Assembly (NCBI RefSeq): GCF_022539665.2
Contig: NC_081333.1
Span: 9,486,001 to 9,550,000 of the forward strand
Direction of reading: 5' to 3'
From: Daphnia carinata
Taxonomy: Eukaryota
Length of the DNA stretch: 64,000 bases
In this document: piece after piece, positions 28,752 through 30,385 of the stretch
Numbering within the stretch: the stretch's first letter is position 1
Layout of the letters: every line of letters begins with the position of its first letter
The notes under the pieces: generated by a model
Told to the model about the DNA's origin: nothing
Databases searched by the model: none
What the model saw: only the letters and a program-made list of their open reading frames with translations
Program-made: the position numbers and the translations under genes

Positions 28752-28790
28752 TATAAATGGCCGACCCTTCTCTCTGATCCAGCACAGTCA
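28752..28790 (+). promoter_or_regulatory. TATA box (TATAAA 28752-28757) with an Inr-like CAGTC about 30 nt downstream
   Basis: Spacing typical of arthropod core promoters; followed by a spliceable exon chain. Confidence 0.65.
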
Positions 28791-28897
28791 ACCTTCCGAC
28801 ATTGTTTAGAATCGGTCAGTCAACTCATTCGCTTCTGTCTCACCTCTAACTTGTTTGATCATCAACGGAAGCTATTTACTTCGATCATCTCTAAATT

Positions 28898-28909
28898 ATG
28901 ATTTACTAG
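28898..28909 (+). other. Minimal uORF1, ATG ATT TAC TAG (MIY*)
   Basis: First ATG after the predicted TSS; ends 18 nt before the ORF2 start. Confidence 0.55.
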
Positions 28910-28927
28910 TACAAAGCATTCGTGTTA

Positions 28928-29279
28928 ATGAAGAACTTCCCTCTCTCAAGCTACGACTTGCTGCTGCTACTTAACGCCAAGTAAGAAATCAGCTGATTGT
29001 TTTGTTTTTCTTATCTCTTGGTTTCGTTTCCAAGTTCGCTTATGCAAAATTACTATGGTTAGGCTGTTATTACATTATCTTTCCTTTTTTTCTGCTTTCG
29101 TAGTTTAAATAAAAACCTACAATCCCTCCTGGGCAGCCGTCTGGGAAACTCAGGCAATCAAAAAGAATTAAGGGTAAGTCGTAAAAACTGTGTAACATTT
29201 TGTCAAATAACTGCGATAAATCAAATTTCGTTGTCTTTCTTGTTCACAGGTTTTGACGTTGCTTCACTACGTTCCTTGA
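28928..29279 (+). CDS. Spliced 50-aa upstream ORF MKNFPLSSYDLLLLLNANLNKNLQSLLGSRLGNSGNQKELRVLTLLHYVP*. Exons 28928-28980, 29104-29173, 29250-29279
   Basis: Donors gtaaga and gtaagt, polypyrimidine acceptors tag and cag; frame stays open across both junctions. Confidence 0.7.
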
Positions 29280-30073
29280 GGTGAGCATCCATTTGCTTTT
29301 TTTTTTCCTTTGTCTCCATGTCGCGTCTGGTTCTTCTGCTCTGTTGCAATACCCTAAATGGCAGGTTCAAAACAACTGACGAAAAGCAAAAAAGAAAAAT
29401 CTACTCGTTTCGTCAGTTGGGCTTTTTCCTTTTTTGAGGTCATCAGGGGCCTCGAGCGATTTGCTGTTTAAAAGTTCTGCGTTTTTTAAAGTAGATTTCA
29501 CGGGGAAAGGCAGGACGTATAGAGGGTAACCAAAACAGTTGCTTCCATGGTTTTTTGGTGTGGCTCGTGATGACTAGTCCCTGGCCGGTTTCGCGATCAC
29601 GTGTACAGTACGTGATCTCTTGATTCGAAATTCTTTGTCTTTTAAAGCAACCGCCTGCGGATTTATACTGAAGGATATTTACAACGCTGAAAGTTTACCG
29701 AGACGTATGCAAACAAGGAAAAGAAAATGGGAAAATGGAGAAAACCCTTTCTAGCGTAACAAGGGAAGTAGTGAGGTTGAATGGAGACCTTGTTCACTGG
29801 CTAGCCAGGATTTCCTTTTCGACTGTGAAGATTATTTGCAAAAGCGGATCAAGGTTCCCAGCCTCACTGGGATATTCAAATGGTACCATATATAAAGCCA
29901 TGCTCGTCCTGCATATTCGTAGGCAGATCTTGCCGGTCGATAGTCAAACCGAGACTTGATGCAACTTTAGTTCCTCGTGTGCAAACCATTCAATGTTATC
30001 CGTAGCCAAATCTCAATCGTATTTAATTTTTCTTCGTCTTCCTTCGGTATATTTAGTTTTGCCAAACACGAAA

Positions 30074-30385
30074 ATGGTGCAAGAATCCGGATCCAAATCT
30101 CAGATGAATGTCAACACGGCCGTCTCACGCAAAGACACTGGATACGTGAGCGATCCAGCGGCTGGCAGGTAACGACGGATGTGAAATCAATTCTATCATT
30201 TCTTAATTGTTTCTTTTGTGGGGTGAAAAAAAATGCGCAGGTCTTACAGCCAAATTGGCGTTAAGCAGCACTACGACTCGTCGAAAAGTTATTCGTCGGG
30301 TCAGAAGATGGACTCCCAAAAGTACGGAGCATGGGGCCCGGTCTACAAGAACAAAGACAATTTCGCCAGCATGCACCTCTTTTAA
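30074..30385 (+). CDS. Spliced 79-aa small protein MVQESGSKSQMNVNTAVSRKDTGYVSDPAAGRSYSQIGVKQHYDSSKSYSSGQKMDSQKYGAWGPVYKNKDNFASMHLF*. Exons 30074-30168, 30241-30385
   Basis: Strong start context aaaATGG, 72-nt GT-AG intron, GC-richer coding-like composition, AATAAA at 30532-30537. Confidence 0.75.

Follow-up and report, generated by a model that had tools for sequence, protein, structure and literature searches.

Does the short open reading frame (ORF) that lies ahead of a small orphan gene in Daphnia carinata act through the peptide that it encodes? The stretch analyzed here (64,000 nt; contig NC_081333.1 of NCBI RefSeq assembly GCF_022539665.2, positions 9,486,001 through 9,550,000 of the forward strand; herein the window) has a G+C content of ∼40% and short introns. 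It contains a 50-codon upstream ORF (uORF) that starts at an ATG at 28928 (the uATG), stops at a TGA at 29277 through 29279, and is assembled from three short leader exons of a transcript whose main ORF has 79 codons. A preliminary description of this DNA had proposed the spliced uORF and pointed to its terminal proline codon as a possible cause of ribosome arrest. We find that the encoded peptide, as judged by comparison of orthologs, is conserved to its very last residue and more tightly than the protein encoded downstream. We take it, tentatively, to be a conserved-peptide uORF (CPuORF) that curbs main-ORF translation in cis. The coordinates of all features are collected in Table 1.

The frame owes its length to RNA processing. 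Read without splicing, the frame from the uATG closes after 18 codons; 50 codons are open in spliced RNA alone, and the uORF therefore hinges wholly on splicing. Exon 1 ends in GCC AA, followed by its donor, and exon 3 reads GTT TTG ACG TTG CTT CAC TAC GTT CCT TGA G, with the donor gtgagc next. The joints of the transcript were found in Logan contigs from sequencing runs of close relatives, 90 to 99% alike the window and drawn from five studies, which may not include the window's own strain. One run is recorded as RNA, and the remaining runs are presumed to be RNA; spliced contigs can come only from RNA. The joints 28980>29104 and 29173>29250 were present in five of five runs (X1, X2, X4, X7, and X8), the joint 29280>30057 in four of four, and the joint 30168>30241 in three of four, with X4 having no contig that spans it. 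Every joint of the five-exon transcript has GT..AG borders. The contigs join exons 1-2-3-4-5 and place the uORF wholly inside the 5′ leader of the mature mRNA. The three-exon structure thus appears in RNA contigs with exactly the joints that had been proposed from the genomic letters, and the CCT TGA end indeed stands a single base, G29280, ahead of a splice donor. When the three pieces are joined by script, they translate to 50 residues with the C-terminal end ELRVLTLLHYVP, followed by the stop; within exon 2, the uORF frame is the sole open frame of three.

Selection on the peptide was assessed against a more distant Daphnia. A scan of metagenome contigs with an alignment of the main ORF returned one locus (herein L001; 3,038 nt), which carries the entire orthologous gene with the same five-exon layout, a uORF of 49 codons, and the same 79-residue orphan ORF downstream. 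Its introns are 63 to 69% identical to those of the window, near the background of a global alignment, and its exons are recognizable. Across the last 32 codons of the uORF, nine codons have changed via 11 base changes; all nine are synonymous and none is non-synonymous. Exon 2 holds all 11 changes (11 of 70 bases), which are either at third positions or are first-position leucine changes (CTA>TTG and TTA>CTG). Read in the other two frames of exon 2, both of which contain stops, the same changes are synonymous in 0/9 and 2/9 cases. When 11 substitutions with the same transition share were placed at random, the peptide was left unchanged in 0 of 200,000 placements. Exon 3 is identical at 31 of 31 positions, and the proportion of changed codons in the final nine (0/9) differs from that in exon 2 (9/23; Fisher p = 0.035, window vs. 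L001). As this exon of 31 nt is frozen even at synonymous sites, a constraint at the level of RNA or splicing is plausible there; the position of TGA G|gt at the donor is also kept in L001. By this pattern of substitutions, the uORF peptide is under purifying selection on its amino acid sequence. For the main ORF, the same two loci differ at 10 codons by synonymous change and at 10 by non-synonymous change. Both ORFs are under selection, and on these counts the uORF is under tighter constraint than the 79-residue orphan main ORF.

The same contrast between the uORF and its surroundings is seen at shorter distance. In the close relatives, the three uORF parts show 1 difference in 91 nt, 1 in 69 nt, and 0 to 1 in 32 nt, respectively. 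Of the 22 differences between 28620 and 28980, 21 fall within the 270 nt that precede 28890. Where contigs retain intron 2, they show 13 to 14 differences and 2 gaps in the 117 nt compared, and intron 3 shows 63 differences and 15 gaps in 796 nt. Two uORF variants could be assigned a position, and both leave the amino acid unchanged (29119 A>T, CTA>CTT, Leu; 28978 C>G, GCC>GCG, Ala). They are seen in run X7, in a minor spliced form with GAA for CAA at the end of exon 1 and CTT for CTA at the start of exon 2. The differences in the uORF exons of X1, X2, and X4 (one each) were counted without positions.

Homologs beyond these loci place the conservation at the C terminus. The D. pulex "hypothetical protein" DAPPUDRAFT_321879 (herein P0010; 50 residues) is identical to the window peptide at 47 of 50 positions; the query that reached it was the window stretch 29105 through 29284, which by chance is open through intron 2. 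A HMMER search with P0010 against 1.84 billion representatives (E up to 0.001) gave four proteins: P0010 itself and three distant products (P0011, P0012, and P0013) with E-values of 1e-7 to 9e-4 and 62 to 74% identity. P0012 (49 residues) stops exactly at ...HHVP; the motif also occurs inside P0011 and P0013, two long products of gene calling. The window, L001, and D. pulex agree at every one of the last 29 residues. In six sequences, 18 of the 29 tail positions are invariant (N-L-x4-G-S-R-L-x-N-S-G-N-x2-E-L-x-V-L-x2-L-H-x-V-P), and all six tails finish Tyr/His-Val-Pro. The N-terminal 20 to 21 residues vary within Daphnia and are unalignable in P0012. An alignment of orthologs had been set beforehand as a check on whether conservation concentrates at the C terminus, and this is what it gave: a 29-residue tail is kept and the heads diverge. 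In P0011 and P0013, the exon-2 residues run straight into the exon-3 residues, inside long ORFs that otherwise resemble unspliced DNA, which suggests that intron 2 is absent in these species.

Other searches returned little. The D. pulex peptide matched only itself in a word-index search; Pfam gave no matches for the exon pieces or for five full homologs of both ORFs; and tblastn of both peptides within the 64-kb window hit the locus itself only, with no paralogs. Matches in the ESM Atlas were subthreshold or were bacterial "hypothetical" look-alikes with few shared features, and were treated as chance. An AlphaFold model of the D. pulex peptide (single sequence; predicted local distance difference test [pLDDT] 75) predicts helices at residues 8 through 32 and 37 through 47.

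The main ORF is an orphan. Its only named relatives are LOC116928230 of D. magna (79 residues; 85% identity across exon 5) and a protein of 81 residues in D. galeata, and no homolog outside Daphnia-like sequences was found in protein, Pfam, and ESM Atlas searches. The annotations conflict, with the uORF called the gene's protein in one species and the downstream ORF in another. The association of the two ORFs is present in L001, with the same exon layout, and they are joined in the relatives' contigs. The uORF homolog P0011 and a main-ORF homolog, P0015, share their sources, and the contig recorded for each measures 12,537 nt; the two are probably on one contig, which would extend the linkage of uORF and main ORF to a third lineage. 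We considered a read-through fusion of the two ORFs, which share one frame in the window (six codons between them), and rejected it on the ground that L001 has them in different frames.

How would ribosomes meet these ORFs? A CAGT initiator-like site at ∼28785 through 28788, ∼34 nt downstream of a TATAAA box and kept in L001, would put the start of transcription at about 28786. A start there would give a 313-nt leader with exactly two uATGs, in the window and L001 alike. The first opens a mini-uORF of three codons that in L001 reads ATG ATT TAT TAG with G at −3. Its ATG precedes the uATG of the long uORF by 30 nt in both loci, and its stop precedes that uATG by 18 nt. The context of the uATG is poor in both the window and L001 (T at −3, A at +4), and that of the main ATG is strong (A at −3, G at +4). 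Between the stop of the uORF and the main ATG lie 18 nt in the window and close relatives, and 22 nt in L001. The mature leader folds no more stably than mononucleotide shuffles (z = +0.7 and +0.2), and a search of Rfam over 27500 through 31000 gave no matches; neither a snoRNA host nor a known RNA element is indicated.

The closest parallels to this arrangement are found in plants, where class I CPuORFs, marked by a conserved C terminus and stop position, are enriched for peptide-dependent repressors, and where the critical C-terminal regions span 12 to 26 residues (available portions of Ebina et al. 2015, PMC4330380). The Daphnia uORF shows the class I pattern in that both the C-terminal residues and the stop codon's position are conserved, the stop in P0011 and P0013 being ambiguous. 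Like such plant uORFs (e.g., ANAC082, CIPK6, and At3g15430), it has a conserved C terminus of tunnel length (29 residues in Daphnia) and lies upstream of one conserved main ORF. Unlike them, it is of animal (cladoceran) origin and without sequence relation, it is split over three exons, and its main ORF is a faster-evolving 79-residue orphan; its function is predicted here. Conserved-peptide uORFs and dicistronic genes have been described in Drosophila (Hayden and Bosco 2008, PMC2276209). As far as the available part of that paper goes, those uORFs are similar in their arthropod setting, in a ratio of non-synonymous to synonymous substitution rates (Ka/Ks) below 1, and in the same main ORF across species; they differ in that the sole Daphnia magna entry there belongs to CG9960/CG9958, with no counterpart of the present gene seen.

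The terminal proline had invited comparison with uORF2 of the human cytomegalovirus (hCMV) gp48 (UL4) gene. The accessible text of Matheisl et al. 2015 (PMC4605324) reports that stalling there needs both Pro21 and Pro22, that the penultimate proline flips U4493, and that a helical nascent chain together with the terminal prolines silences release, so that the stalled ribosome blocks scanning. On that account, both are short uORFs with a proline right before the stop and a helical chain (observed in hCMV, predicted in Daphnia), and the proposed effect is the same; hCMV uORF2 differs in having 22 codons and UAA, vs. 50 codons and UGA, and a proline, vs. a valine, at the penultimate position, and the search of PDB chains described below revealed no sequence similarity between the two peptides. 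The likeness drawn earlier thus holds for the proline directly before the stop and fails for the required proline pair, and the analogy is a loose one.

Two further systems are instructive. TnaC, the Trp-sensing leader peptide of Escherichia coli, ends in Pro-UGA, and its release is inhibited with the nascent chain and a small ligand in the tunnel; it shares the Pro-UGA end with the Daphnia uORF and offers a model for metabolite sensing. It is unlike the latter in being bacterial, in using RF2 and not eRF1, and in controlling Rho termination and not scanning; the present data suggest no ligand. ATF4 and GCN4 resemble the Daphnia leader in that a very short 5′ uORF (three codons) comes first and a longer, inhibitory one separates it from the main ORF. 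The Daphnia mini-uORF fits this scheme as a short 5′-proximal uORF with a purine at −3 that is kept in L001, and reinitiation after it is putative. In ATF4 the inhibitory uORF runs into the main ORF in another frame, and in GCN4 several uORFs are widely spaced; the Daphnia leader departs from this in that the long uORF ends 18 or 22 nt short of the main ORF, with no overlap, and in that the gap between the uORFs is only 18 nt. The uORF peptide sequences are not the conserved feature in ATF4 and GCN4, whereas in Daphnia the peptide is conserved.

The reading that we favor, with a probability of roughly 45%, is that of a class I conserved-peptide uORF that acts in cis at its Pro-UGA end and curbs translation of the main ORF. 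As the peptide is under selection, we infer that the uORF is translated; this would be the work of those ribosomes that initiate at the weak uATG. With UGA in the A site, the exit tunnel would hold the conserved C-terminal ∼29 to 40 residues, predicted to be helical; peptidyl-tRNA(Pro), as a poor release substrate, would slow or stall termination. Held at the UGA, a ribosome would stand a few nucleotides upstream of the main ATG and bar the way to all 43S complexes that follow, and the output of the main ORF would be set by how often the uATG is used and by how long termination takes, a time possibly tuned by some metabolite or by the state of a translation factor. Ribosomes that resume scanning after the mini-uORF would mostly skip the uATG 18 nt on, which would amount to a built-in bypass, and a proximal promoter in intron 3 may provide a second one. 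Reinitiation after a 50-codon uORF and a gap of this size is expected to be poor, which would leave leaky scanning past the uATG, or the mini-uORF bypass, to supply the main ORF with ribosomes. Gating of reinitiation on the 79-residue ORF, which the preliminary description had put forward, thus becomes the less likely route, the gap being just 18 nt in the window and 22 nt in L001. A more specific and rather unlikely version of action in cis holds that the uORF encodes a cladoceran-specific sensor arrest peptide whose release at UGA depends on a small molecule or on the state of translation factors (e.g., eIF5A or polyamine supply), which together with the mini-uORF would make the leader a switch for an abundant orphan protein.

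We favor action in cis because conservation reaches the very last residue, because the stop is fixed in position, because the most distant homolog keeps only the tunnel-length C-terminal part, and because the last nine codons are frozen at silent sites, to which a splicing constraint may contribute. Several observations weigh against it. Stalling at the uORF stop is pure inference on our part. The base rate is modest, as 5 of 16 conserved uORFs of Arabidopsis repress in a peptide-dependent manner (PMC4330380, available portions) and 3 of 22 conserved plant uORFs arrest ribosomes in vitro (Hayashi et al. 2017, PMC5587730, in the part of the text at hand). The Daphnia peptide ends in Val-Pro, not Pro-Pro, and is therefore no member of the hCMV type. 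In P0011 and P0013, a tryptophan follows V-P and the called ORF continues, and P0013 has tryptophan for the arginine before VL. Tryptophan makes up 3.0% of P0011 and 4.9% of P0013, which suggests that the gene caller read TGA as Trp; the residue after V-P may be such a TGA or may be a real TGG. A sequence search of the PDB with P0010 (phmmer; chains of at least 20 residues, stalled nascent chains included; E up to 10) gave no matches. RNA contigs of the relatives extend beyond the TATA box, reaching 540 to 990 nt upstream of 28890, and do not fix the 5′ end of the mRNA; further uATGs are therefore possible, and the mean depths of the contigs would fit high cover on ∼300 nt of exons with thin cover upstream. 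Finally, residues 10 through 17 are also kept within Daphnia, and the predicted fold is a helix-loop-helix; both would suit a folded micropeptide that acts in trans equally well.

Such a micropeptide forms the core of the main rival account, in which the mRNA is bicistronic, the 50 residues are a stable product that acts in trans as a helix-loop-helix that binds a partner, and the position ahead of the main ORF serves co-expression. We regard this as possible and, on balance, doubtful. Besides the conserved residues 10 through 17 and the two predicted helices (pLDDT 75), it would account for purifying selection that is stronger on the uORF peptide than on the main ORF and for the D. pulex annotation, which takes the uORF product as the gene's protein; true dicistronic genes also occur among the conserved uORFs of Drosophila, in the accessible part of PMC2276209. 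It fits less well with P0012, the most distant complete homolog, which keeps only the C-terminal ∼29 residues and keeps them to the last one, or with the fixed stop and the absence of synonymous change in the last nine codons noted above. A conserved weak uATG would be odd for a protein that needs efficient synthesis, and by eye the peptide shows neither a signal peptide nor a membrane span; searches of Pfam, the ESM Atlas, and the PDB gave no relative.

Accounts in which the peptide plays no part in regulation fare worse. Control by start-site choice alone, through leaky scanning and delayed reinitiation as in ATF4 and GCN4, would have the uORF repress simply by being translated, with its peptide kept for some other reason. 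The window and L001 share the mini-uORF with its purine at −3, the 30-nt spacing of the two ATGs, the weak context of the uATG, and the strong one of the main ATG, and a three-codon first uORF followed by an inhibitory one of ∼50 to 60 codons is the layout of ATF4. We consider the account improbable, however, as it leaves unexplained why all 11 exon-2 substitutions are synonymous, the second uORF ends ahead of the main ATG without overlapping it, and the 18 nt from the mini-uORF stop to the uATG would leave scant room for a tunable re-acquisition of ternary complex. That the open frame has no peptide function at all, having arisen by chance or because two very short exons are constrained as nucleotide sequence (by splicing enhancers or RNA structure), we hold to be very improbable. 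The micro-exon of 31 nt, invariant even at synonymous sites, and the near-consensus donor TGAG|GT would agree with it, but exon 2 has changed at 11 of 70 bases with the peptide the same, homologs are found at the protein level at 62 to 74% identity, and the leader, as described, folds like its shuffles and has no match in Rfam.

Table 1. Features of the uORF-containing gene in the window, in order along the forward strand
Feature	Coordinates	Strand	Basis or remark
TATAAA box, distal promoter P1 (putative)	28752..28757	+	TATA, spacing, and next ∼60 nt kept in L001
Leader exon 1	28786..28980	+	5′ end predicted; 3′ end from joint 28980>29104; donor GTAAG
Mini-uORF ATG ATT TAC TAG, 3 codons, A at −3	28898..28909	+	Kept in L001
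uORF part 1: uATG (T at −3, A at +4), codons 1-17 plus 2 nt	28928..28980	+	Variable N-terminal part
Leader exon 2: uORF codons 18-41	29104..29173	+	RNA joints, translation
Leader exon 3, 31 nt: uORF codons 42-50 (VLTLLHYVP), TGA, G29280	29250..29280	+	RNA joints
Intron 3 with conserved blocks and second TATA-like box	29281..30056	+	Joint 29280>30057
Exon 4: final 17 nt of leader, main ATG 30074 (AAA ATG G), codons 1-31 plus 2 nt	30057..30168	+	
Exon 5, coding part: remainder of 79-residue main ORF, stop 30383-30385	30241..30385	+	

Intron 3 carries features of its own. Several blocks within it are conserved between the window and L001 (580 through 1380 in the latter). A second TATA-like box at 29889 through 29896, ∼180 nt before the main ATG and followed by conserved sequence, could possibly be a proximal promoter that gives a leader without either uORF; this alternative leader would contain three other ATGs in the window and none in L001. 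Between 29337 and 30006 there is no contig in X2, X4, or X8, and X1 has one low-depth contig over the entire intron 3, the missing cover in itself proving nothing. Two elements (29595 through 29617 and ∼29428 through 29470) are conserved with L001: a near-palindrome, GATCACGTG...ACGTGATC, built around an ACGTG core, and a block, TTTTTGAGGTCA...GGCCTCGAGCGATTTGCT, that contains AGGTCA. We take ACGTG to be an E-box core and AGGTCA to be a half-site of the nuclear-receptor type, and the conserved elements may be transcriptional control elements of the main-ORF gene.

The gene has a close neighbor downstream. A convergent gene on the minus strand (30578 through 32465), with ORF pieces that by eye are WD-repeat-like and an F-box-like stretch, has its 3′ end ∼40 nt from the AATAAA (30532 through 30537) of the small gene; L001 (about 1980 through 3038) likewise keeps the start of this gene. 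Farther away in the window, translations by eye resemble a PP2A B55 regulatory subunit (22698 through 24501, plus strand), an acyl-CoA desaturase (48741 through 50661, minus strand), and an NFX1-type zinc-finger protein (53273 through 54558, plus strand).

Few animal uORFs are known to act via their peptide sequence. A full-text literature search on Daphnia uORFs, the gene identifiers, and the peptide motifs returned no description of the element, within a partial corpus to which subscription-only papers and ∼1.7 million PMC articles did not belong. The present uORF is one of the class I pattern in a lineage for which no case had been described. It is unusual in being split over three exons and in being better conserved than the orphan protein downstream. 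The comparative signal is unusually clean, with every exon-2 substitution silent and the tail invariant to its last residue, and the module is compact: a mini-uORF, a weak uATG, a Pro-UGA end, and 18 nt to the main ATG. Daphnia permits CRISPR and reporter work, and peptide-dependent translational control is directly testable in this system. Should the reading as a sensor arrest peptide be true, the cladocerans would have a regulator better conserved than its own target protein, and the uORF would be among the very few termination-arrest peptides of animals.

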